From a virus: a stretch of 22,842 bases of DNA. The notes beneath the pieces are model-generated. The model worked only from the letters and a program-made list of their open reading frames with translations, had not been told where the DNA came from and searched no databases. The position numbers were made by a program, and so were the translations under genes. Shown here piece by piece: positions 1 to 22,057 of the stretch. Every line of letters starts with the position of its first letter. The stretch's first letter is position 1. Location of the stretch: UHGV virus genome UHGV-1660455, one strand, 5' to 3'.

Positions 1-72
1 CGGATGAATATGATGATCTCATATCAGGAACTTGTTCGCACCTTCCCTAACTGTGTTATAGACTACTAAATA

Positions 73-96
73 TTAACCCCTCAAAAGAGGGGTTAA
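73..96 (-). terminator. Perfect palindromic hairpin (TTAACCCCTC-AAAA-GAGGGGTTAA) immediately 3' of the J stop; putative intrinsic terminator ending the late tail operon
   Basis: 10-bp perfect inverted repeat with a 4-nt loop read directly from the sequence, flanked by A/T-rich sequence; sits 5 nt beyond the J stop codon at 101-103. Confidence 0.45.
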
Positions 97-100
97 TATT

Positions 101-3100
101 TTAACCTGTGAATGAACCAGATCCGTGTGATACTATGACAGTAGGCGAATAAATGGACGCGCCCCTGTTATTTTGAGCGGACACTTTAATACGTACTGTT
201 ACGTTTGGACCTGTTACAACAGCAGAATGCATAATAAGTCTCTCCACGTCTTGCACAGATGAACCACTCTCATTGCCGTTAATATTGATTAGTCCTGCAC
301 CATTACCTTTAACGTTTGCTATAACACAGACGTGTCTTGCGTGCCCAGAACTGGATGAATCCGTATAAGTTATTACCTTTTCTAAAAGGCCGTCACTAGA
401 CCGACTAACGTCAGTTCCGGTGTGCATATTTGCAATGTCCCCGATAAAACTTTGGGCTTCCACAGTCCCTTTGAATTTACCGCTTGTTGCTTGTATCTCA
501 CCAGTAAATCTACCGCCACTAGCATATACTACACCTCTGACGGTCACATTGTTGAATTCAGCATCTCCAGCTTTATTCAACTTCCAACCAGCAGAACCAG
601 CTGCATAGTTGTTGGACTGGATATAGTTGCCGATTTTTGCGTTCTCAATGGTGCCGTCCTGGATGAAGCTGGCCCGGATGAATGTCTGTCCATTCTGGAT
701 CACAAACGGCAAAGCCACGCTATTTCCGGCTGCCGTGGTGACGGCGAAGCGATCAGCCAGGAAGATAACCTGCGACTGCATGCCGGATGGCGTATTCTCC
801 ACGCCGATACCCATCCCCGCGGCGTAATACTGACCGTTGCTGGAAACGCCAACCTTGATGTTGTACATCGCGCTGAGGTCGCCATTAACGTTTGCTATCG
901 CCTGAGCGTTAGTGGTGATGGCGGAGGTATGCCCGTTCACGGTCGCCGTAATGCCGTTTATCTGCGTGGCCGTAGCCTGCTGATAGTCGGAGAACGTCTG
1001 ATTCAGGCTGTTTATGGATGCCTTGTTGCCGTTGACATCCGTCTGCAGGCTCAGCAGAGAACGCGCCGTTGCCTCCTTCTCGTTAACGATTACCTCATCA
1101 ATACGATCCAGCTGCGCACTGTTCCCTGCGACCGAAGCTGACAACGATTTACGCGTAGCCACTTGTGCCAGCCCGTTCTGGATAATTGCGATAGCAGAGT
1201 TCTTCACCCCGCCCGTCATGCCGTCCATAGACACGCTGATGCTGTCGATTCGCTGGCCCAGTGCGGTATCAGCAGTCGCAACAGTCTGCTCAAGATCTGA
1301 GAGAGAAGACGACACATCACCGACCGTGCTAGAAAGCTCATTAACGCTGGTCTGAACCTGCCCGATGTCCTGCGCGTTTTTTGCGATTTCCTGCGCCTGG
1401 AGTTCAAGTTCATCGTTGGCCTGTTTGATGTCGTCAGCCATGCCAGCAATTTTTTCATTGCTGTCCACAGCGTTCTCGATCAGGTCTTTGAACGTCTCAG
1501 ACCCTTTGATGTCTTCAAGGATCACATCTGTGATGTCAGAAACGTCGATACTGGCCTGCCCACGAACCCAGCCGGTATAACCTGACTCGTTACCGCTGCG
1601 GTCAACCAGCTGCGCGCGGTACCAGAAAATCTGCCCCGCTTTAAGGCCCATCTGCTGATATTTACGCTGTGGGTATGGCACATCAGCCAGCAACATCGCA
1701 TCGTCCTCAGTACCGGTCAGGCTGTACTGAATTTCCGTCTTCAGTGTATCGTCCGTATTGGCCGGGAACCCCCAGTTCAGCTCGATACCGAACACCACGT
1801 TTTCAGACGCGATGAAACCCACCGGCTTCGGCGGATTCCCGTCCTTGCCCGTCAGTGTTTTCTCTTCTGAATATCCCCATCCGGACGAAATTTCAGCGGC
1901 ATTGATGGCACGCACGCGAACCAGGTAGCGTCCCGCATAAATACCCGGAACATCGAACGATGTGGTGGAGCTGCGCGGCACATTGACCCAGTTCCCGTCA
2001 TTGCGGCGCCACTGTGCTTCATAGGCGATGGCGTTCTTCGCCTGGTCCCAGCTGACGCGCATGGTCTGAACGTTCACATTCTGCTGAACCACAGAGAATG
2101 AATTGATGACGATGTTGGCTGGCGGGGACTGATTACCTGGTGGAATAATACTTATTGGCCGCTGGTCGATAATGGCACCGGTATCGATACGCGCATATTT
2201 ATCCGGATCGTGCAAAGCGCCAGCAATCGAATACGTTCCGTCATTATTATCCGTAACGCTGATAACGCGATATTGCTGCGCGTAAAGCTCTTCAGACTCG
2301 ACAATCCACACCGATTCCACTGCAGGTGTTTCGCTGTATGCCGTTGTCACAGTGACGGCCCGCCCGTTTACGCTCTGTATCGTCCTGCTCTGCGATGCGC
2401 CGGACGGAAGGTTAACCATCAGACGGCTTCCGGGAGCGGCTGCCGAATCACGATCAAGCGTGATAACGCGACCGTTAACCGCGCTGATGCGCCCTCCCAT
2501 CACTTTTCCGGAAAGCAGCTCATCGGCAACCGCGATGATATAACCAGGCTGTGGGATCTTACCGTCAAGACCAACATCGAACGACACGATGCGATCCTTG
2601 TTATTGGTCAGGATACCCCAACGTCCTTTGCGGTTTGCCTCTGACTGCCGGGTACAACCAATGGCTGTCATTTCGAGCTGATTTGTGCCAAAGCGAGCAA
2701 CGAGATCCTGCTCAAATACAGGCTCCATCGCATCCGCGTAGGCATTACCAGGATCGGACCAGGAAACCAGTGCCGTGGTATAGCGGGTTTTGGTGGTGCT
2801 GCCCGAATAGGTAAAGCGCCCATTAACCACGTTTGCACGCGTGTAGCTGTAATCCACATCGCGGGGCATATCCGCCAGCGCAACGATTTGATCGCCACCC
2901 CAGTACGTCATGCCCCGGAATATCGCCGCAAAATCACGTAACACGGTATAGGCGTCATTCCTCTCCTGCACGTACACGTTACAGGTATAGCGAGGCTCAG
3001 TGCCGCTACCGCCTTTACCATCAGGAACCGGCTGATCGCAATATTGCGCGACCTGATAAAGCGTCCATTTATCAATATTGGCCGCCGTCAGGCGATTGCC

Positions 3101-3991
3101 CAGCCCAAAGCGGTCGCTCACCACCAGATCGTAAAAAATCCAGGCTGGATTATCCGTCCACGCCCACTTAAACGCCCCTGTCCATGTGCCGCTGTAGGTG
3201 CGGGTCTCCGGGTCATACGTATCCGGAACGCGGATTACACGCCCTCGCGGTTCGCAGGATATTTGCGGGATAGAGCCGTTAAACTGGCTTGAGTCGAATT
3301 CGATGTACAGCAGCGCGGTATTTGGATAACGCAGTTTGGCGTCAATAACCTCTGTGTAGCTCTGCAGCGTCATCGTGTCGCCAATTTTCGCGCTGTTGGC
3401 ATCCGCCGTAAGCTTACGCAGGCGCACCGTCCATGTACTGCCTGCCTGTGGTAAATCGATACGATGGCTGCGTTCGTAGCCGGAAGTTGTCTTGCCGGTT
3501 ACGCTGGTATTAAGTACCGTCTGCCAGGTGCCGCCATCGGTCTGCAGATCAATAGCGTAGTTAATTGAATAGCCAACCAGATCGCCATCATCCTCCTGTT
3601 TAAAAAGCGATGGCCACTTGAGGCGCAGGCGAACGGCTGACAGTTGCGTGTTGGTAAAGGTATGTGTCCAGCCGGTGGTGCTTGACACTTCGGTGCCCAC
3701 GCTGATTTCATTTTCTGTGCCGGGGACACCCTGAATATATTTTTGTGCCTGAGTCCCCGGACGAAATTCCCACGCCACGCCACTGAAGTTTTGCGATCCG
3801 TCTGCATTCTCCAGTGGCGTGCCATCGAGATAGATATCCTTCGCCGTCAACTGCCCTGCAAATTCGCCCTCTCCCAGTGCAACAAGAATTTTGGCTTTCG
3901 CTACGGACTGGAGATCGTCTGGTTGTTCAGTCGGGGTGCGTGAACTGGAGCTGCCGCCCTTGCGGCCTCTAATCGGAGTAGATGTAGCCAT
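101..3991 (-). CDS. J: Tail tip / host specificity protein J (central tail fibre), 1296 aa; mosaic with a non-lambda C-terminal region
   Basis: Uninterrupted 1296-aa ORF. N-terminal and central parts are recognisably like lambda J (fibronectin-III-like middle region), and it sits last in the conserved order ...M-L-K-I-J. Confidence 0.93.
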   Translation of the reverse strand: MATSTPIRGRKGGSSSSRTPTEQPDDLQSVAKAKILVALGEGEFAGQLTAKDIYLDGTPLENADGSQNFSGVAWEFRPGTQAQKYIQGVPGTENEISVGTEVSSTTGWTHTFTNTQLSAVRLRLKWPSLFKQEDDGDLVGYSINYAIDLQTDGGTWQTVLNTSVTGKTTSGYERSHRIDLPQAGSTWTVRLRKLTADANSAKIGDTMTLQSYTEVIDAKLRYPNTALLYIEFDSSQFNGSIPQISCEPRGRVIRVPDTYDPETRTYSGTWTGAFKWAWTDNPAWIFYDLVVSDRFGLGNRLTAANIDKWTLYQVAQYCDQPVPDGKGGSGTEPRYTCNVYVQERNDAYTVLRDFAAIFRGMTYWGGDQIVALADMPRDVDYSYTRANVVNGRFTYSGSTTKTRYTTALVSWSDPGNAYADAMEPVFEQDLVARFGTNQLEMTAIGCTRQSEANRKGRWGILTNNKDRIVSFDVGLDGKIPQPGYIIAVADELLSGKVMGGRISAVNGRVITLDRDSAAAPGSRLMVNLPSGASQSRTIQSVNGRAVTVTTAYSETPAVESVWIVESEELYAQQYRVISVTDNNDGTYSIAGALHDPDKYARIDTGAIIDQRPISIIPPGNQSPPANIVINSFSVVQQNVNVQTMRVSWDQAKNAIAYEAQWRRNDGNWVNVPRSSTTSFDVPGIYAGRYLVRVRAINAAEISSGWGYSEEKTLTGKDGNPPKPVGFIASENVVFGIELNWGFPANTDDTLKTEIQYSLTGTEDDAMLLADVPYPQRKYQQMGLKAGQIFWYRAQLVDRSGNESGYTGWVRGQASIDVSDITDVILEDIKGSETFKDLIENAVDSNEKIAGMADDIKQANDELELQAQEIAKNAQDIGQVQTSVNELSSTVGDVSSSLSDLEQTVATADTALGQRIDSISVSMDGMTGGVKNSAIAIIQNGLAQVATRKSLSASVAGNSAQLDRIDEVIVNEKEATARSLLSLQTDVNGNKASINSLNQTFSDYQQATATQINGITATVNGHTSAITTNAQAIANVNGDLSAMYNIKVGVSSNGQYYAAGMGIGVENTPSGMQSQVIFLADRFAVTTAAGNSVALPFVIQNGQTFIRASFIQDGTIENAKIGNYIQSNNYAAGSAGWKLNKAGDAEFNNVTVRGVVYASGGRFTGEIQATSGKFKGTVEAQSFIGDIANMHTGTDVSRSSDGLLEKVITYTDSSSSGHARHVCVIANVKGNGAGLININGNESGSSVQDVERLIMHSAVVTGPNVTVRIKVSAQNNRGASIYSPTVIVSHGSGSFTG

Positions 3992-4002
3992 ATTGCGCCC
4001 AT

Positions 4003-4026
4003 AAAAAAGGCCACCCTGAGGTGGCC
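4003..4026 (-). terminator. GC-rich hairpin (GGCCACC-CTGA-GGTGGCC) followed by a U6 run on the minus-strand transcript, between I and J; terminator-like or attenuator element
   Basis: 7-bp perfect stem at 4009-4015/4020-4026, preceded on the plus strand by AAAAAA (4003-4008), which is UUUUUU after the hairpin on the minus-strand RNA; lies in a 52-bp I-J spacer. Confidence 0.5.
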
Positions 4027-4043
4027 TGAAAGGAGGTTTTTAT

Positions 4044-4634
4044 TTATTGCTGGTCTTCGACATAAATCCCGGCAGAAATAATCGCACCGCCGATTTGCCG
4101 ACGACCATAAAGAAGCGGTACCGGATAGCCCTGCGCGGCGGTGTTGGTGACTCCACCGAACGCGTATGAGGCGCGGTTATCTGAACTCTGTTTGCTGGCC
4201 AGCCCCGCTGGTTGAGGGGAAAGCATCTGAACAACCCCGCCAATCATCATTGCGGCACCGAATTTGTATAAGAATGGTGATGCCGCAGCCCAGGGTGTGA
4301 AATTAAGCACCGCCCCAACGGCAACCAGAACTGCACCAAGTATTGTCTGGAGTAATCCGGCCTTTTTGCTCCCGATAATCACCGGGACAATGCGAATGAC
4401 ATCGCCGGTGACCGGGTAACCCAGGTCATCAACACCAATATTCTTTTTCCCTTTGAATACTGAATAAGTGAGACCACGGCGTTGGCTGGAAATCATAAAC
4501 TGCTCAAAGCCCGGTATAGTCTTTGCCAGCGCAACACTCGCTTCGTTCACGCGGGAAATCAGGCGATGGTGAACTTTACCGAATGTTTTCCCGAGCACGC
4601 CGCCAAGCTCAATGCGGGTCATTACTTCCTGCAT
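4044..4634 (-). CDS. I: Tail assembly protein I
   Basis: 196-aa ORF between K and J in lambda order; hydrophobic central segment. An alternative start at 4622 overlaps the K stop (TAATG). Confidence 0.85.
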   Translation of the reverse strand: MQEVMTRIELGGVLGKTFGKVHHRLISRVNEASVALAKTIPGFEQFMISSQRRGLTYSVFKGKKNIGVDDLGYPVTGDVIRIVPVIIGSKKAGLLQTILGAVLVAVGAVLNFTPWAAASPFLYKFGAAMMIGGVVQMLSPQPAGLASKQSSDNRASYAFGGVTNTAAQGYPVPLLYGRRQIGGAIISAGIYVEDQQ

Positions 4635-5392: not shown

Positions 5393-6110
5393 ACGGCAGC
5401 TCGTTGCTGTCTCCGTGCCGGAGCTTGCAGGCCGTCAGCGTGCCGTTGCAGACATCCAGCGATGGATCGTCAACCGGATTATTGTTTTTGTCGAAATAGC
5501 GCGTTCCGGCATAGTCGCAGCCGTCGCCGGTCCGGTACTTGTTCCGGATGCACCAGCTGCATAACGAATGCAGCTGCCGCGTGGGTATCATCTGGCCCTG
5601 TAAATCCATCGGACTGGAAAGCGTAAATTCAACAGATTCATCCGTCTCGGTGCTTCTGGCATCGATATAAAAGACCTTCAGCTTTTCCTGTGACGGGTCT
5701 GCAGTGGGATTGCCCTGCGGAAAATTTCTGGCGTCCAGATACTGTGCCAGCGTGTCGTGGATACTCACTTTCGCCTGCAGCAGATCGTCATACGCCAGAC
5801 AGAGCGCTGAGATCGAGCTGTCCAGGTTCGCCACACTCAGTTTTGGCTGTGGACTGGTACCGTCCGTAGTCGCTTCAATACCCTCAACCTGACACGGCCA
5901 GGCTTTATACTCCTCCCCCTGCCACCAGATGGACTTCGCCGGAAGTTTATTCTCATCCCCGCCTGCAGCCTCAATCTCTTCCGGGGTATGCGCGATATTA
6001 TGTGCGTGGAAGCGGAGTACATCTGACATACCGAACGCTGTGCCATCGACAGAAAAAAGCCGGACTTCATTGCCCGGCTCGAGTTTTTGATAATCAGCAT
6101 TAAGACTCAT
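5355..6110 (-). CDS. L: Minor tail protein L
   Basis: 251-aa ORF following M in lambda order; Cys-rich C-terminus (possible Fe-S site) as in lambda L. Confidence 0.88.
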   Translation of the reverse strand: MSLNADYQKLEPGNEVRLFSVDGTAFGMSDVLRFHAHNIAHTPEEIEAAGGDENKLPAKSIWWQGEEYKAWPCQVEGIEATTDGTSPQPKLSVANLDSSISALCLAYDDLLQAKVSIHDTLAQYLDARNFPQGNPTADPSQEKLKVFYIDARSTETDESVEFTLSSPMDLQGQMIPTRQLHSLCSWCIRNKYRTGDGCDYAGTRYFDKNNNPVDDPSLDVCNGTLTACKLRHGDSNELPFGGFPGTSLIRS

Positions 6111-6454
6111 GGTGCAAATGCCTGTTCAAACGTTGCGGTTACGGTTATCACTTTTACGTTTTTAACCACCTTTTTGAGCGTGTCAGCCTCGACACGCCAC
6201 AGCGCGGTATCGCCGAAAGGCGGTGTGAAAATAAACGACTTCACTTTATGCCGCCGAAGGAAAGCGTGAATTTCATTCGCTGTAGTCGGATCCCCTGAAA
6301 AGGAATATTCATAGGTACGAATCTCATCATTCAGGCCGGAGCCGCTCACCTGTGCGTACCCGTCGCCGAACTGGACCTTCCTGACTGTGTCTTTGCTTCC
6401 CTCGGTGGGCTGGCTGGAAACCTTAATGCCCCAGGGGAATGTTTCTATCGTCAT
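6107..6454 (-). CDS. M: Minor tail protein M
   Basis: 115-aa ORF immediately after H, overlapping the L start by 4 nt; size and position match lambda M. Confidence 0.88.
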   Translation of the reverse strand: MTIETFPWGIKVSSQPTEGSKDTVRKVQFGDGYAQVSGSGLNDEIRTYEYSFSGDPTTANEIHAFLRRHKVKSFIFTPPFGDTALWRVEADTLKKVVKNVKVITVTATFEQAFAP

Positions 6455-9705: not shown

Positions 9706-9741
9706 AATTACTCCGGGGGAACGGGGCTTTCGCCCCGGTTA

Positions 9742-11809: not shown

Positions 11810-12271
11810 TCAGACTTCGAAAGCCAGCCCCTTTGCGATCAAGTCGTCGGCATCCTGTTCAGATACGCGGATAATCACACCAGGCTCTACGATAGATACC
11901 GGCTCGTTACGCGTGGCATGCAGAGCGTCAATATGCAGGGTGGCCAGCGTTTCTACTGATACCAGGTCACCCGTTGTGGCCGATTCCGTTTTTACTTTTG
12001 CCACGTTAGCAACATTGTTGTCGGTGCTGTCGGTGCTGTCGGTGCTGTCGGTGCTGTCGGAAGCATTCTGCACGCCGTTTTCACCGTCAACTGACCCGGC
12101 ATTGCCATCCAGTTCCTCTTCAAGCTCAGCAATACGCATCGTCAGTTCCTGAATGGTGCCGCTGGTACTGACCTCGCGGTTAAGCTGGGTCCCAAGTTCA
12201 TTCAGGCGGGCGACCAGCTTTTCTTTTTCTGTCATGGGAAATACTCCAGAAAGGTGGCCCGACAGGGCCAC
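11810..12271 (-). CDS. FI: DNA packaging protein FI, with an expanded (DST)n linker
   Basis: 153-aa ORF. The N-terminal ...EL.ARL.ELG.QLNR.VS..GT..EL..R.AEL.EELD... and C-terminal ...LH.DALHATR.EPV... segments are lambda FI-like; the central acidic linker holds the tandem repeat. Confidence 0.88.
   Translation of the reverse strand: MALSGHLSGVFPMTEKEKLVARLNELGTQLNREVSTSGTIQELTMRIAELEEELDGNAGSVDGENGVQNASDSTDSTDSTDSTDNNVANVAKVKTESATTGDLVSVETLATLHIDALHATRNEPVSIVEPGVIIRVSEQDADDLIAKGLAFEV
12021..12060. repeat. Perfect 9-bp tandem repeat (TCGGTGCTG, about 4.4 copies) inside FI, encoding (Asp-Ser-Thr)n on the minus strand
   Basis: Read directly: tcggtgctg x4 followed by tcgg. Confidence 0.95.
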
Positions 12272-12280
12272 TGGGGGAAG

Positions 12281-13306
12281 TTATGCCAGTTTGACGGAGA
12301 CGAATGCGTCAGGGTCTGGCAGCAGCATCAGCGGAGCTGACTGAATCATGGTGAATTCGCGCGCCGGATCCCCCGACTGCACCCAGTTTTTCGGGTAGCG
12401 TGTCGAGGCATTGATACCTTCGCGCTGGGCATCAGCATCAAGAATGCAGCCATAGGTACGCAGGCCACGAGCCTGGGTATTCCCCAGCACCATTGTCAGG
12501 TCCGGCAGATAATTCTTTTTGACGTCGTTTTCGACGTACTGGCCGGAGTACACCACGATGGCCACATCGCCAAACATCCCCTTGTATGAAACAGCCATAC
12601 CCAGGTCTTTCACGGCAGTTTCCAGCTCAGAGTTAGAACCACGACGCGTATCCAGCTTCTTCTCAACAGCCTTGAAGGAACGGAACAGCGCCCAGCCTTT
12701 CGGATCGAACACAATGATGTTGACCACACCGCTGGCGTTGAGCGCGTAGGCTTCAATGTCATCGGTCGGGTCATACGTTTCTTTGTCGCGGGTTGACCAT
12801 GCAGCCGCACCGGCCTGGACAATGTTGTTACCAGCGCTGCGGCCCATATCGACTTCAACAGGCTCGAACGCTTCCCCGGTCATGGTGTATTTACCGCTGA
12901 GCACCGCCGAAACAGCCTGTTTCTCTTCGACCTGAGCAATCGCCAGCTCTTCATCCTTCATGTTCTGAAGGATAATGCGGCGACGGCGATAGACCGGGTC
13001 AGCGAGATTCTGCGGATCCTCATCCGGCAGGCGGCGGAGAGTCATCAGTGGGTTAACTTCGTGTTTCGGCTTCACATAACCCGGCGTGAATTCAGACGTG
13101 CTGCCGCCACGGGAGCGGATCACTTTGCCGGAGACAATCGGCGAGACGTAAAGCGCCATATTGACCAGGCCAGGAATTTGCGACAGGTAAACCTTCTCTG
13201 TACTGAAGGGATAGGTTTCGCGGAAAAAGATACGCAGGAAAAGCGGATCGAATTTGAATTTCTTCTCATTGACCGCCAGCAGTTGGGCAGTGGTGTAAAC
13301 GGACAT
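12281..13306 (-). CDS. E: Major capsid protein E
   Basis: 341-aa ORF, same length as lambda E and highly similar along its whole length (MS.YTTAQLLA.NE.KFKFDPLFLR...). Confidence 0.96.
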   Translation of the reverse strand: MSVYTTAQLLAVNEKKFKFDPLFLRIFFRETYPFSTEKVYLSQIPGLVNMALYVSPIVSGKVIRSRGGSTSEFTPGYVKPKHEVNPLMTLRRLPDEDPQNLADPVYRRRRIILQNMKDEELAIAQVEEKQAVSAVLSGKYTMTGEAFEPVEVDMGRSAGNNIVQAGAAAWSTRDKETYDPTDDIEAYALNASGVVNIIVFDPKGWALFRSFKAVEKKLDTRRGSNSELETAVKDLGMAVSYKGMFGDVAIVVYSGQYVENDVKKNYLPDLTMVLGNTQARGLRTYGCILDADAQREGINASTRYPKNWVQSGDPAREFTMIQSAPLMLLPDPDAFVSVKLA

Positions 13307-13320
13307 AGATTTTTCCCGTA

Positions 13321-13344
13321 AAAAAAGCCGCGCAAGCGGCTTTT
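13321..13344 (-). terminator. Hairpin (GCCGC-GCAA-GCGGC, extendable through flanking A/T) with a U-run, between D and E
   Basis: Inverted repeat read directly; on the minus-strand RNA the stem is followed by UUUUUUU; located in a 67-bp D-E spacer. Confidence 0.5.
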
Positions 13345-13373
13345 ATGAATGATGATGGTTGTAGAAATGCGGA

Positions 13374-13706
13374 TTAAACGATGCTGATTGCAGTACCGGC
13401 GAACGCGTTACGTTTAATGTTGTCGTCGGTGACGGCAGATGGCCAGAGGACATCTTCAATACGGAAAGAGCCAGATTTGTAATATGCCAGTTCCGCGCTG
13501 TTCTGGTCTGCGGTTACAGCCAGGATGCCCATTGCCGCGCCAGCATGAGCACCATCCCAGACGGTCAGCTTGCCAGAAGTGGCATCCAGCATGAGCGGCG
13601 TCATGGCTGGAGTGGAAGCCGTCAGTTCGCCAGGACCATACGCAGTGTGCGCCGGGTCGCTGTTACCGAGCGGCTGGTTATGTGTGAAAACTTCAGTAAT
13701 TGCCAT
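13374..13706 (-). CDS. D: Head decoration protein D
   Basis: 110-aa ORF, same length as lambda D, with the conserved ...GNSDPAHTA... and ...[11 protein letters not shown]-terminus. Confidence 0.95.
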
Positions 13707-15046: not shown

Positions 15047-16618
15047 TTGCTCCTCCTCGTTTGATTTTTTCACTCCGGCCTCAAAAGCTGCAGCGGCCCA
15101 TGCCGGTGGTTTCAGACCCGCAGCACGACGCTCCATGGTTTCCCGGACCTGCTGGGCAAAAATCTCCTGATAATCATCACCGCGTTTGGCGCACTCTTTT
15201 TCATACGTGCTGAGACCTGCCTCAATGAGCATGACGGCCTCCTGTACCTCTTTCAGCCCGTCAATTGCCATTCGACCAGAGCCAATCCAGTTGGCATTCC
15301 CCCAGGCTGTTCTCGCCTCCTGGAAACTGAACCGGGCTTTCGAAGGAAGCGTGACCACGCGGCGGACAATCGCCTCTTCAAGCCAGCAAAGAAACATCTG
15401 ACAGGCCTGTCGGGATGCCACAAACTTGCGACGCCCCATAAAGTACGCCCAGGACTCGTTAGCACTTGCGCGTGCGGTCGAGTAGCTCATCTGCGAATAG
15501 TTTCGCGAAAGCTGCTCATACGACACACCAAGCCCAGCGGCAATATAACGCAGCAGGGACTGTTCAAAAGTCGAGTAGCCGTTATCGGTATCCTGCGCCG
15601 ACTGAAGGTTGAGAGAATCACCCGGCAACAGGTGTGGAACCCTTGCCCCACCCAGGCGAACAGGCGCAGCTGAGTAATAGGACGCCATTTCACCGAGCCA
15701 GCCCGTAAGTTTGCTCTGCTGCTCTTTATTATCCGCGCCGAGAATAAAGTCCATCGCCGATTGGGTATCCAGTTCACTCTCGATGGTAGCGGCATACATA
15801 GCCTTCACTATCGCGCTCTGGAGCTGGGTATTTTGCAGGGTATCGAGCATTTTCATCTGCTCCATCACGCTGTAAAACGCATTGGCCCCACGGGTCTGTC
15901 CATCCTCCATCGGTTCGAATACATGGATAAATGAAGGTCGACCGCCGGGTAGTTCGCGAGGAATGTAGGTCCAGTTCTGCGCCATCCAGCCGGGATAACC
16001 ATCGTCGCTGACGTAATATCCCAGCGCAGCACCGCTATCATTTATTTTCACACCGGCGCGACAGTTCCGGGTATCACCGATATTATTCGGATTGCTGACG
16101 CGCTTCGGACTGACCATTTTGAACTGAGTACGGAAAAGACGCGTTGAATCGCTGTCCCAGGTCGCCTGCGTGCATAATTCACCGTTAAACGCGTGCATGG
16201 CCACACCTTCTCGGATCATCATCGTAAACGTTCGCTTACGCTCGGCATCAATCCCGCAAAAGTCGTCCTCGGCATACTCATTCCATGCAGCTTCCACATC
16301 CCGCGAGAATGCCCGTGAATCCTCCTCATTTATTCCCAGATAACGCCAGCTTGGTCGATAACTGAGTCTGAAAAATGACCCGACGATGTGGTCCTGGTGG
16401 AGCTGCACGGCGTTTGCCGCGTAGCCATTATTTCGCACCAGATCGTCAGCGCGGGCATTTCCGCGAGAATAGTTGGGTAGGAGTGCGGCATCTGCACTTT
16501 CACTCGGCGGATTCCAGCCTCGCAGCTGCCCACCAAACCCGCCTCCACCGCCATGATATCCTGCGTATTCCCGAAGGGATGTTTTCCCGTCAGGTCCCAC
16601 CAAAGATGGTATTTTCAT
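15026..16618 (-). CDS. B: Portal protein B
   Basis: 530-aa ORF highly similar to lambda B over its length. Confidence 0.96.
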
Positions 16619-19511: not shown

Positions 19512-20186
19512 TCATCGACGGCACTGCTGCCAGATAACACCACCGGGGAGACATTCCATCATGATGGCCGTGCGGACATAGGAAGCCAGTTCATCCATCG
19601 CTTTCTTGTCTGCTGCCATTTGCTTTGCAACATCCAGATCCGCACATTCAGCAGTATTTTTCAGCGCGTTATCAAGCACCGCTTCGAGATTGGTATCAAC
19701 GCCAGAGTTAACTTCAAATTTGTCGGCGCTGATGGTTACCTTGTTCTGTACTGGCTCATCACGCAGGATACCAAGGCTGATGTTGTAGACTTTGGTCACC
19801 GACTGAGGCTTTTCTAATTCGGCGGCGCGGATAGAACCACCAGCGATATTGGCTTCCTTGATGAATACCTCACCGTTCTTCACAACAAATGGTGAGGTAT
19901 CAATCTCAACGCCAAGCGTCATCGAAGCGCAATATTGCTGCTTACCAAAACGCGTATTGACCAGGTGTTCAACGGCAAATTTCTGCCCTTCTGATGTCAG
20001 AAAGGTAAAGTGATTTTCTTTCTGGTATTCGGTTGCTGTATGTCTGGTTTCAGCAAAGCCAAACTCGCGCAATTCAGCGGCACCAGATTTAGACGGCAGG
20101 TCACCTGACAGCAACGCGCCACGGAAAAAGAGCGAATACAGAACATCCGTCGCCGCACCGGATAACGTAATGATTTTCTGACCCAT
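19512..20186 (-). CDS. Conserved lambdoid-phage protein of unknown function, encoded just upstream of cos
   Basis: 224-aa ORF with an AAAGGAAA ribosome-binding site. It resembles proteins found at the right end of lambdoid genomes, but my recollection of the exact family is uncertain. Confidence 0.6.
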   Translation of the reverse strand: MGQKIITLSGAATDVLYSLFFRGALLSGDLPSKSGAAELREFGFAETRHTATEYQKENHFTFLTSEGQKFAVEHLVNTRFGKQQYCASMTLGVEIDTSPFVVKNGEVFIKEANIAGGSIRAAELEKPQSVTKVYNISLGILRDEPVQNKVTISADKFEVNSGVDTNLEAVLDNALKNTAECADLDVAKQMAADKKAMDELASYVRTAIMMECLPGGVIWQQCRR

Positions 20187-20446: not shown

Positions 20447-20911
20447 ATGATCACCAAAGTAAAAATCAAGTTTATTTCCCCTATTGATGGATCGGTATCA
20501 GATACCCCCACGGAGCATGCAATTCCCGTAGTTCCATTGACAGTATGGCCAAGTAGCTCAAAAGATATAAACGTTTATAAACCAAATGGATTGAAGGCTG
20601 GTGCCTACGCACTTATAGATACCGGAGCAGATCTTTGCTATGTGGATTCAGACTTTGCTGACGATTTAAAACTCCCAATCGCGGAAAAAACAACTGTGAG
20701 CGGAGCCACCTCAACAATAGAAACTACAGTTCGGCATGCGGTAATATCGTTCACTGAGGACGAAAGAGTTTTTTCAACAGAATTGACTTCAGTGCCATTG
20801 GTAAGTAACGGGAGAAAATTCCAAGTCGTTTTCGGAATGCAACTAATTAAAATGGGCGCCCTTACGATGGATTTTTCCAATCAAGTATTTGAGTTAACAT
20901 TTTTTAACTAA
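20447..20911 (+). CDS. Retropepsin-like (clan AA) aspartic protease, 154 aa; AT-rich moron gene on the strand opposite the late operon
   Basis: ORF with a good Shine-Dalgarno (AAGGAAAAAGG-ATG) and the canonical aspartic-protease signature hydrophobic-hydrophobic-D-T-G-A (..YALIDTGADLCYVD..). Markedly lower GC than the flanking phage genes. Confidence 0.75.
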   Translation: MITKVKIKFISPIDGSVSDTPTEHAIPVVPLTVWPSSSKDINVYKPNGLKAGAYALIDTGADLCYVDSDFADDLKLPIAEKTTVSGATSTIETTVRHAVISFTEDERVFSTELTSVPLVSNGRKFQVVFGMQLIKMGALTMDFSNQVFELTFFN

Positions 20912-21176: not shown

Positions 21177-21194
21177 AACCACAGATTTGTGGTT
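21177..21194 (-). terminator. Weak hairpin (AACCACA-GATT-TGTGGTT) with a U-run on the minus-strand RNA, at the 3' end of the Rha-like gene
   Basis: 7-bp inverted repeat overlapping the stop codon by 2 nt; followed on the minus-strand RNA by UUUUGAG. Confidence 0.35.
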
Positions 21195-21879
21195 ATGCGG
21201 CCAAGCGGTGCTGCTCTTCGATAAGTGGCTGGCGGTGATTACGCTCGAACATGCCGCGCAGCACTTCTTTGCGTTGTTCGAAGTCCCACCCCATGCTGAT
21301 GAATACCGTGTTGGCGCGCTGTAGCTCGGTGATGCAGTGAATTTGTTCCGGCGTCAGGTAATCGCGGATCGGCTCTTTCTTCCCGATTTCGTGATGCACG
21401 CGGAACTTGGCCGCCGTCATGCCCAGCGCCAGTCGGTTAATCAGGTCAGCTTCGTTGCTGAAGTGATGCGGGGCGATCTGCTTACCCTGCGCCTCACGCT
21501 CATGCTTGATGGCATCGGTCATAGGCTTGTACTCCAGACGCGCCGAGTTGCGATCCATCTTCTTCTTCGCCAGCGCGCTGCGCATAGTGAAGAATTCATA
21601 TACCAAGCGCTTTTTGAATTCACGCACAACTTCATTGTTTCGCATGTAGGTGATCAACAGCGTGGTTTGCTGTTCGTTTAGCAGTGCTATTTCCTGCTTC
21701 TGCATGCCCCCATCCGTTTGAAAGGGTCGCATTTCAAATTCCACCCTTCCGAATTCTTCGAGGTCGCTTTTGTACTTCCTGATGAGTTGAATCACTGGCT
21801 TGTGATCCTTCATAACACCACTGGCGATCACTGCCGAGTTGGTGACCAGGTCTAGCTTCTTGATTTCTACTAATTGCAT
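21193..21879 (-). CDS. rha: Phage regulatory protein of the Rha family (antirepressor-like)
   Basis: The N-terminus ..LVTNSAVIASGVMKDHKPVIQLIRK.. fits the Rha-domain pattern (T.SS..IA...GK.H..V.R.IR). The tracked ORF runs to 21963, but the Met at 21879 has a plausible ribosome-binding site and begins the conserved domain. Confidence 0.7.
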   Translation of the reverse strand: MQLVEIKKLDLVTNSAVIASGVMKDHKPVIQLIRKYKSDLEEFGRVEFEMRPFQTDGGMQKQEIALLNEQQTTLLITYMRNNEVVREFKKRLVYEFFTMRSALAKKKMDRNSARLEYKPMTDAIKHEREAQGKQIAPHHFSNEADLINRLALGMTAAKFRVHHEIGKKEPIRDYLTPEQIHCITELQRANTVFISMGWDFEQRKEVLRGMFERNHRQPLIEEQHRLAA

Positions 21880-22032
21880 GGCGTGTACCTTTCTTTGAGA
21901 TGAACCTTTGCCGCACAGGAAATCAGCCCGTCGAGGCTCGCCAGCACTAACTGACTTCCTCAAAGGCTCATTTCAAAGGGTATGGTTCGACGTGGGTTGA
22001 ATGCGCTGCGGTGCGCGGTGAAATTCTGGCAT

Positions 22033-22057
22033 AAAAAAGCCCGACCGAAGTCAGGCT
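22033..22057 (-). terminator. Intrinsic terminator after Rz/Rz1 (stem AGCCUGAC / GUCGGGCU, UUCG loop, then UUUUUUAU on the minus-strand RNA)
   Basis: 8-bp stem with one G-U pair and a UUCG tetraloop followed by a U6 run; lies 20 nt beyond the Rz stop. Confidence 0.65.

Follow-up and report, generated by a model that had tools for sequence, protein, structure and literature searches.

In a phi80/N15-like lambdoid phage, the late-operon spacers between genes D and E and between genes I and J were each found to hold a hairpin and a U-tract, and both elements have, as judged from sequence, the stem, loop, U-tract and discriminant score of an intrinsic terminator. The DNA analysed (the window) is a stretch of 22,842 nucleotides from UHGV virus genome UHGV-1660455. 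From the structure, conservation and junction behaviour of the two elements we infer, with somewhat more confidence than doubt, that they are conserved intrinsic terminators of a Q-antiterminated late operon, which would be read through by Q-modified polymerase, would stop unmodified polymerase and would possibly stabilise the RNA. Terminators at these two junctions are an already known, publicly annotated feature. Their discovery value is small, because closely related or identical sequences have been annotated for years; the only mildly new points are descriptive, namely the conservation statistics, the hairpins that bracket gene E and a crossover inside the I-J hairpin of a relative.

The window is the late region of the phage, and all structural genes lie on the minus strand, in the lambda-like order Nu1, A, W, B, C, D, E, FI, FII, Z, U, V, G, T, H, M, L, K, I, J. 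The features at the two junctions are as follows (source in brackets):

101-3991, minus strand: gene J, central tail fibre / host specificity protein, 1296 aa, HK97-like (ORF list)
3992-4043, minus strand: I-J spacer, I stop to J start, 52 nt (ORF list, gap table)
4003-4008, minus strand: U6 tract of the I-J spacer (sequence)
4008-4027, minus strand: I-J hairpin, 5' arm AGGCCACC at 4027-4020, loop UCAG at 4019-4016, 3' arm GGUGGCCU at 4015-4008 (sequence, fold, terminator scan)
4044-4634, minus strand: gene I, tail assembly protein (ORF list)
12281-13306, minus strand: gene E, major capsid protein, PF03864, downstream neighbour of the D-E spacer (mEp237 annotation)
13307-13373, minus strand: D-E spacer, D stop to E start, 67 nt (ORF list, gap table)
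13320-13326, minus strand: U7 tract of the D-E spacer, of which the first 4 U also pair with an A4 tract (sequence)
13323-13344, minus strand: D-E hairpin, 5' arm AAAAGCCGC at 13344-13336, loop UUGC at 13335-13332, 3' arm GCGGCUUUU at 13331-13323 (sequence, fold)
13374-13706, minus strand: gene D, head decoration protein, upstream neighbour of the D-E spacer (ORF list, mEp237 annotation)

Over the 2-kb stretch around the D-E junction, the sequence matches that of Enterobacteria phage mEp237 exactly (100%) and that of phi80 at 99.3% identity. A lysozyme gene, a frame in the Rz position and a rha-like gene are located upstream of Nu1, so the window spans cos, as in a prophage or concatemer. The window ends within the lysozyme gene, and the Q gene and the late promoter fall outside it; in the nearest relative, mEp237, a 'late gene regulator Q' is annotated upstream of the holin and lysin genes, and by analogy with such relatives the late operon of the window is presumed to depend on Q.

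Gene J was observed to be mosaic (1296 aa in the window, 1151 aa in mEp237), and its DNA is 85.8% identical to HK97 J over 100-4025, an alignment whose end falls inside the I-J hairpin. Nu1 has two unusual neighbours in the region that separates the lysis genes from cos: a plus-strand ORF (20447-20911) that encodes a retropepsin-like aspartyl protease domain (PF13650, E about 1e-5) and a minus-strand ORF (19512-20186) with a weak Phage_Tail_Tip match (PF09327, E 1.7e-7).

On the late transcript, the D-E spacer reads ...CAUUCAU-AAAAGCCGC-UUGC-GCGGCUUUU-UUUACGGGAAAAAUCU-AUG and the I-J spacer reads ...CCUUUC-AGGCCACC-UCAG-GGUGGCCU-UUUUUAUGGGCGCAAU-AUG. The stems are of 9 bp (5 GC) at D-E and 8 bp (6 GC) at I-J, each closed by a loop of 4 nt; intrinsic terminators were taken to need a GC-rich stem of about 5-12 bp, a loop of 3-8 nt and, directly behind the stem, at least 5-6 U, ranges within which both elements fall. 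Folded alone, the D-E hairpin has an energy of -13.1 kcal/mol (z = -3.4) and the I-J hairpin one of -16.1 kcal/mol (z = -5.4), and for neither was any of 200 shuffles as stable. These results agree with the first-pass annotation, which had given spacers of 67 bp and 52 bp, as in the ORF and gap tables, had placed in each a GC-rich hairpin followed by U6-U7 on the late transcript (13321-13344 and 4003-4026) and had regarded weak folding energies as an argument against termination. Both elements occupy gaps of a kind that is rare in this operon, true intergenic spacers, and the stem starts 29 nt after the stop codon of D and 16 nt after the stop codon of I, respectively. In PMC4824070 it is reported that terminators a few bp past a gene are repressed and that their efficiency grows with distance; the I-J stem, at 16 nt from the stop codon, is borderline for escape from masking by the terminating ribosome.

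For terminator scoring, the complete 22.8-kb late strand was scanned with a d'Aubenton-Carafa-type score (hairpin energy per nucleotide plus a weighted U-tract). With the discriminant used, our own re-implementation with modern energy parameters and for that reason approximate in its absolute thresholds, only four late-strand sites scored above 0, namely I-J with 39.5, a site in the gene L coding sequence with 28.7, D-E with 25.7 and the post-Rz site with 24.5. In 40 dinucleotide-preserving shuffles, the mean number of positive sites was 0.23 and the maximum score 12.4. The D-E and I-J hairpins are thus far beyond chance, and the label 'terminator-like', given to them at first reading, is upheld by this score (25.7 and 39.5, compared with the shuffle maximum) and agrees with existing GenBank annotation. 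In a separate terminator scan, I-J was listed and D-E was missed, probably since the A4/U4 pairs were counted as stem, which consumes the U-run.

Other classes of element were tried for the two spacers and rejected. Strong bidirectional terminators were set aside on the plus-strand scores, which reach just 10.9 and 11.5, the U-runs there being short or absent (bidirectional action would be at most weak for D-E). A riboswitch or an attenuator with alternative structures is not indicated by the whole-spacer folds, each a single hairpin with weak flanking pairs, or by Rfam 15, in which no family matched at gathering score anywhere in the window. RNase III sites were dismissed on length, known substrates being far longer than the 8-9-bp stems. 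Terminator-promoter pairs were rejected on the finding of no promoter-like site in either spacer; in the window as a whole, promoter-like sites were fewer than in shuffles. A literature search for lambda 3'-end or term-seq data covering the D-E and I-J sites returned nothing usable, and a paper on the transcriptome of a Pseudomonas phage held no relevant result.

Both junctions were compared with those of lambda (J02459), in which D and E, and I and J, had been described at first reading as nearly abutting. The comparison contradicts that description: the D-E gap runs from the end of D at 6079 to the start of E at 6135 (spacer 6080-6134, 55 nt) and the I-J gap from the end of I at 15444 to the start of J at 15505 (spacer 15445-15504, 60 nt), and both lambda gaps contain a hairpin with a U-rich tail. 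The supposed contrast with lambda at the two junctions does not exist. The lambda D-E hairpin, AAAGGCCGC-CUGU-GCGGCUUUUUUUACGGGA, is homologous to that of the window, from which it departs by a single stem base (A-U to G-U) and by two bases of the loop. The lambda I-J hairpin, AAACCGCC-UGCG-GGCGGUUUU (also written AAACCGCC-UGCG-GGCGGUUUUGUCAUUUAUGGAGCG), has a similar layout before J, and its U-tract is interrupted (UUUUGUCAUUU), unlike the U6 of the window; the I-J stem of one relative (L132) is intermediate between those of the window and lambda.

The same elements were traced in the annotation of public records. The D-E element is annotated as 'rho-independent terminator' in mEp237 (JQ182730 5938..5958, the same bases as in the window), HK225 and HK629, and the I-J element as a terminator or putative terminator in HK97 (AF069529 15107..15129), N15, phiKO2, HK225, HK75, HK633 and mEp234. 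In the record of mEp237, whose D-E element is identical to that of the window, the I-J hairpin was left unannotated.

For the analysis of sequence variation, the D-E comparison set consisted of 80 IMG/VR loci obtained via protein D and 59 genome loci obtained via capsid-protein alignment, and the I-J set of 80 IMG/VR loci obtained via protein I. Low-coverage contigs at the lambda-like 89% identity to the capsid query were not used as independent relatives. Loci at this identity to the query in the capsid gene, the same as lambda (L178-L193, L202, L207, L209-L219 and L222), are in many cases short or of low coverage and occur in unrelated assemblies (Pseudoxanthomonas, Bradyrhizobium, Paenibacillus, Prevotella, Corynebacterium and others); they look like contamination of the assemblies with laboratory lambda DNA. 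Stem pairs at both junctions were counted with a loop-anchored script; MAFFT shifted the register where a stem had gained a base.

At D-E, 24 unique versions of the hairpin were collected; among them are those of lambda and of two prophages, one from Erwinia (74% identity in E) and one from Aeromonadaceae (72%). All of them have the same five G-C pairs, with a single exception (G-C to G-U), and pairs 6 and 7 occur as A-U, G-U and G-C, with double (compensatory) changes among them. The four loop positions are near random, with an entropy of 1.7-1.84 bits and 19 different loops, and a U-run of at least 6 is present in 24/24 unique variants. At I-J, the 37 unique variants listed retain the stem, with a few compensatory changes, and differ in the loop, of which 16 kinds occur (most often UUCG); each of these 37 has a U-run on the 3' side of the stem. 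The I-J stem of the window has one extra G-C pair (GGCC...GGCC) that was found in 1/37 variants; the HK97 copy, AGCCACC-UUUG-GGUGGCUUUUUUAUGGACGCGAUAUG, aligns base for base with the hairpin of the window. Stems and U-tracts that stay fixed while loops vary, with a few compensatory changes, point to selection and not to chance or decay.

The D-E hairpin changes further out in the family. Relatives 58-61% identical in E have a different hairpin at the D-E position, one lacking a clean U-run, and in Pseudoalteromonas relatives (49% identical in E) no hairpin was found at that position.

Further hairpins of the same strand were located in the gap table, the folds and the terminator scan, as follows (source in brackets):

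9722-9737, minus strand: V-G hairpin, CGGGGC-GAAA-GCCCCG, GNRA loop, no U-tract (gap table, fold)
12254-12271, minus strand: E-FI hairpin, GUGGCCC-UGUC-GGGCCAC, tail CUUUCUGG, no clean U-tract (fold)
22033-22056, minus strand: post-Rz hairpin, GCCUGAC-UUCG-GUCGGGC (22056-22039), followed by U6 (terminator scan, fold)

The first-pass annotation, correct in its inventory for D-E and I-J, had overlooked these three. The E-FI hairpin (fold -14.4 centroid, z -2.6) lies in a spacer of 45 nt, with FI taken at its annotated start, and is annotated as a terminator in the HK225 record. Compared with the lambda copy, AUGGCCC-UUCG-GGGCCAU, it shows a compensatory A-U to G-C change at the stem base. Gene E of the window is thereby bracketed by hairpins, at 13344-13323 and at 12271-12254. 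All E-family relatives examined, including those with 49% identity, have a hairpin directly after E, and the stems are unrelated in sequence; several of these hairpins are devoid of a U-tract, and the Pseudoalteromonas copy is a canonical terminator. The V-G hairpin is recorded as 'stem_loop' in HK225 and is absent from lambda; HK97 has a different hairpin at this position, annotated as a terminator. The post-Rz hairpin (score 24.5, -17.1 kcal/mol, z -5.2) is located in the gap from the lysis genes to cos/Nu1, between the rha-like gene (21193-21963) and the frame in the Rz position (stop about 22078), which was assigned as Rz by gene order and phi80 feature names and not by family match.

Every gap of more than 30 nt in the operon holds a hairpin, which is why such gaps exist, and a clean U-tract was found only at D-E, I-J and the post-Rz site. 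Since the E-FI and V-G hairpins have no U-tract, the U-tracts at D-E and I-J are not a by-product of having a hairpin.

Two more hairpins of the minus strand were observed outside these gaps. Within the coding sequence of gene L (6053-6080, minus strand, codons about 11-19), a hairpin GAGCCGGGC-AAUGAA-GUCCGGCUU with a U6 run behind it (-16.0 kcal/mol, z -4.0) ranks second on the late strand by terminator score (28.7); it is present in mEp237 and HK225 and absent in lambda and HK97, and HK97 uses other codons for a nearly identical peptide. Directly after the J stop (69-100, minus strand), a perfect hairpin of 14 bp, AAUAUUAACCCCUC-UUUU-GAGGGGUUAAUAUU (-20.2 kcal/mol, z -5.4), is followed by an only moderately U-rich tail.

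Transcription of the lambdoid late operon is carried out by Q-modified polymerase, on which intrinsic terminators have no effect over long distances, so the D-E and I-J sites could stop only unmodified polymerase. During lytic growth, Q-modified polymerase would read through both terminators. Polymerase without Q, whether started at accessory-gene (moron) promoters or at spurious internal ones or arriving by prophage read-in, would be stopped there. After read-through, the hairpins would stay in the long mRNA as exonuclease barriers around the heavily used D and E cistrons, and the I-J copy, in addition, forms a fixed boundary for accessory-gene insertion and for J-module exchange via recombination in the hairpin. 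The hairpin and U-tract anatomy, with the U-tract separately conserved, argues for signals that are read by RNA polymerase. Against insulation at D-E, expression of structural genes in a lysogen would not be obviously harmful, and the conserved U-tract could alternatively be kept as part of the translation-initiation regions of E and J. In work on phage L, terminators inside late operons are described as common and their roles as 'not known', the options offered being partial termination or the stopping of non-antiterminated transcription (PMC8022706).

Partial termination corresponds to a reading made from the sequence at the outset, that the hairpins are attenuators in lytic growth: a fixed fraction of transcripts would end at each site, so that more D would be made than E and the genes after it, and little J. 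The canonical terminator anatomy and the conserved U-tract would suit it; the phage L paper places partial termination among the possible roles (PMC8022706), and in P22 a region just 5' of the tailspike gene reportedly modulates the number of late-promoter polymerases that reach this gene (PMC2629481). Q-modified polymerase, however, resists intrinsic terminators, and M, L, K and I, which directly precede J, are low-copy as well. The lambda capsid contains roughly 415 copies of E and 405-420 of D, and E is the most abundant late protein; a step down from D to E would make no sense, because the two proteins are needed in about equal numbers. In older lambda work the ratios of late-gene products were reportedly put down to translation and mRNA decay, not to transcription. 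A partial terminator that gives high D and lower downstream expression is for these reasons unlikely, and the attenuator reading as a whole was judged improbable.

The insulating terminators proposed above could have a second role as decay barriers, which is plausible because hairpins bracket E and follow D and V, and these encode the three most abundant virion proteins. A stronger version makes an RNA-level role the selected function: the hairpins would stop exonucleases that work 3'-to-5', or cap the 5' ends that endonuclease cleavage leaves, and so prolong the life of the D and E mRNA and raise the yield of the most abundant proteins. It draws on the bracketing of E and the hairpin after V, on the post-E hairpin found in all E-family relatives examined to 49% identity (several being U-less) and on HK97, in which hairpins are annotated after the major head gene and on both sides of the major tail gene. 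The D-E position itself also favours a role in the RNA, since its distant relatives (58-61% identical in E) have hairpins with no clean U-run and the Pseudoalteromonas relatives have none. The stabilisation of upstream mRNA by terminator hairpins is the subject of PMC11696848. The strict U-tract at D-E and I-J and the hairpin before the low-copy gene J are, however, left unexplained, and no processing sites are known at either junction. RNA stabilisation as such is plausible; as the selected function of the two elements it was considered doubtful.

The I-J element was found to be more than a terminator-like hairpin, in that it marks a point of insertion and recombination. In 19/81 loci the I-J gap is of 317, 600, 750 or 879 nt and contains forward or reverse ORFs. 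In every such locus the insert is placed 3' of the I stop and 5' of the hairpin, and the distance from the hairpin to the J start remains about 17 nt. In the HK97 record, gp22 ('moron product') and gp23 ('reverse moron product') occupy this place and are followed by the terminator; the accessory genes of HK97, HK225, HK022 and many IMG/VR relatives are bounded on their 3' side by the I-J hairpin. When both junctions were examined as moron terminators, an accessory gene at the upstream edge was found in some relatives for I-J only. The 52-nt I-J spacer of the window contains no ORF and no promoter-like site, and thus no accessory gene with a promoter of its own.

A recombination break was mapped to the same hairpin. 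Identity between the window and the relative L131 stays at 0.80-0.86 in the 3' end of I and across the spacer and rises to 1.00 from about 4003 into J; a further relative, L128, shares its I gene with L131 but falls to 0.70-0.78 identity with the window in J. The I-J stem of L131 (about 2090-2125) is a hybrid, with an L128-type 5' arm and loop, a window-type 3' arm and an A.C mismatch. The hybrid stem and the identity step together place a crossover inside the I-J hairpin of L131.

In three relatives (HK97, L126 and L151) a second copy of the cassette was found before gene I, that of HK97 being ACCACC-loop-GGUGGU-U7-AUGGGGGCAGC-AUG. The paired hairpin-U7-AUGGGNGC-AUG cassettes are near-identical within each genome, at 15232 and 13925 in HK97 (L224), at 1224 and 1867 in L126 and at 1464 and 2384 in L151, and with one copy before I and one before J they constitute direct repeats on either side of I and of any genes inserted there. 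This suggests a broader scheme, which we hold only tentatively and think unlikely: hairpin-U7-AUGGGNGC-AUG would be a portable junction cassette whose conserved stretch of roughly 35 nt serves diverged lambdoid genomes as a shared recombination point, drives the capture and loss of accessory genes and the swapping of host-range J modules, and is the lambdoid counterpart of the PeSL cassettes of T4-type phages.

Such observations bear on a last alternative, that the hairpins are evolutionary footprints or recombination linkers: terminators brought or left by accessory genes and kept as homology for the joining of modules, with no transcriptional role of their own. The I-J site, empty in the window and filled by inserts of 317-879 nt in relatives, the crossover inside the stem of L131 and the additional cassette before gene I in HK97, L126 and L151 are consistent with it, and T4-type promoter-early stem-loop cassettes that mediate modular shuffling are the closest precedent (PMC2839356). 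D-E does not fit it: no inserts were found in 80 relatives, and the window-lambda identity profile (about 0.60-0.73 in D, about 0.78-0.87 in E) has only a mild step, for which the weaker constraint on protein D than on E could account. The module-exchange footprint suspected at both junctions is supported for I-J, with its inserts, sharp identity break and in-stem crossover. Moreover, free loops on fixed stems point to selection on the folded RNA or the terminator, and not just on DNA homology. For the two elements together, a linker devoid of transcriptional function was thought very improbable. Conserved terminators that would insulate the Q-antiterminated operon, the I-J copy being at the same time a recombination and insertion boundary beside the host-range gene, remain the preferred reading, and this boundary is of practical use for the engineering or comparison of J modules.

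The elements were finally compared with known systems. Morons are independently expressed accessory genes inserted in phage operons (PMC2629481, citing HK97/HK022 work); the I-J element of the window has the same position as a moron terminator but is a terminator without a moron, and the D-E element is tied to no insert. The closest analogue for the junction behaviour of I-J is the PeSL (promoter-early stem-loop) cassette of T4-type phages, a short repeated hairpin that terminates transcription and marks, and apparently mediates, gene insertion and replacement (Arbiol et al. 2010, PMC2839356); the lambdoid cassette differs from it in having no promoter, in its one or two copies per genome and in that no evidence of mini-circles was found. 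The P22-like phages (phage L, P22) have terminators of unrelated sequence and belong to a different virion type, but they too have a predicted intrinsic terminator, at the end of the procapsid module, in an antiterminated late operon with a single promoter, and their variable moron region lies directly 5' of the receptor-binding gene and influences read-through into that gene (PMC2629481).
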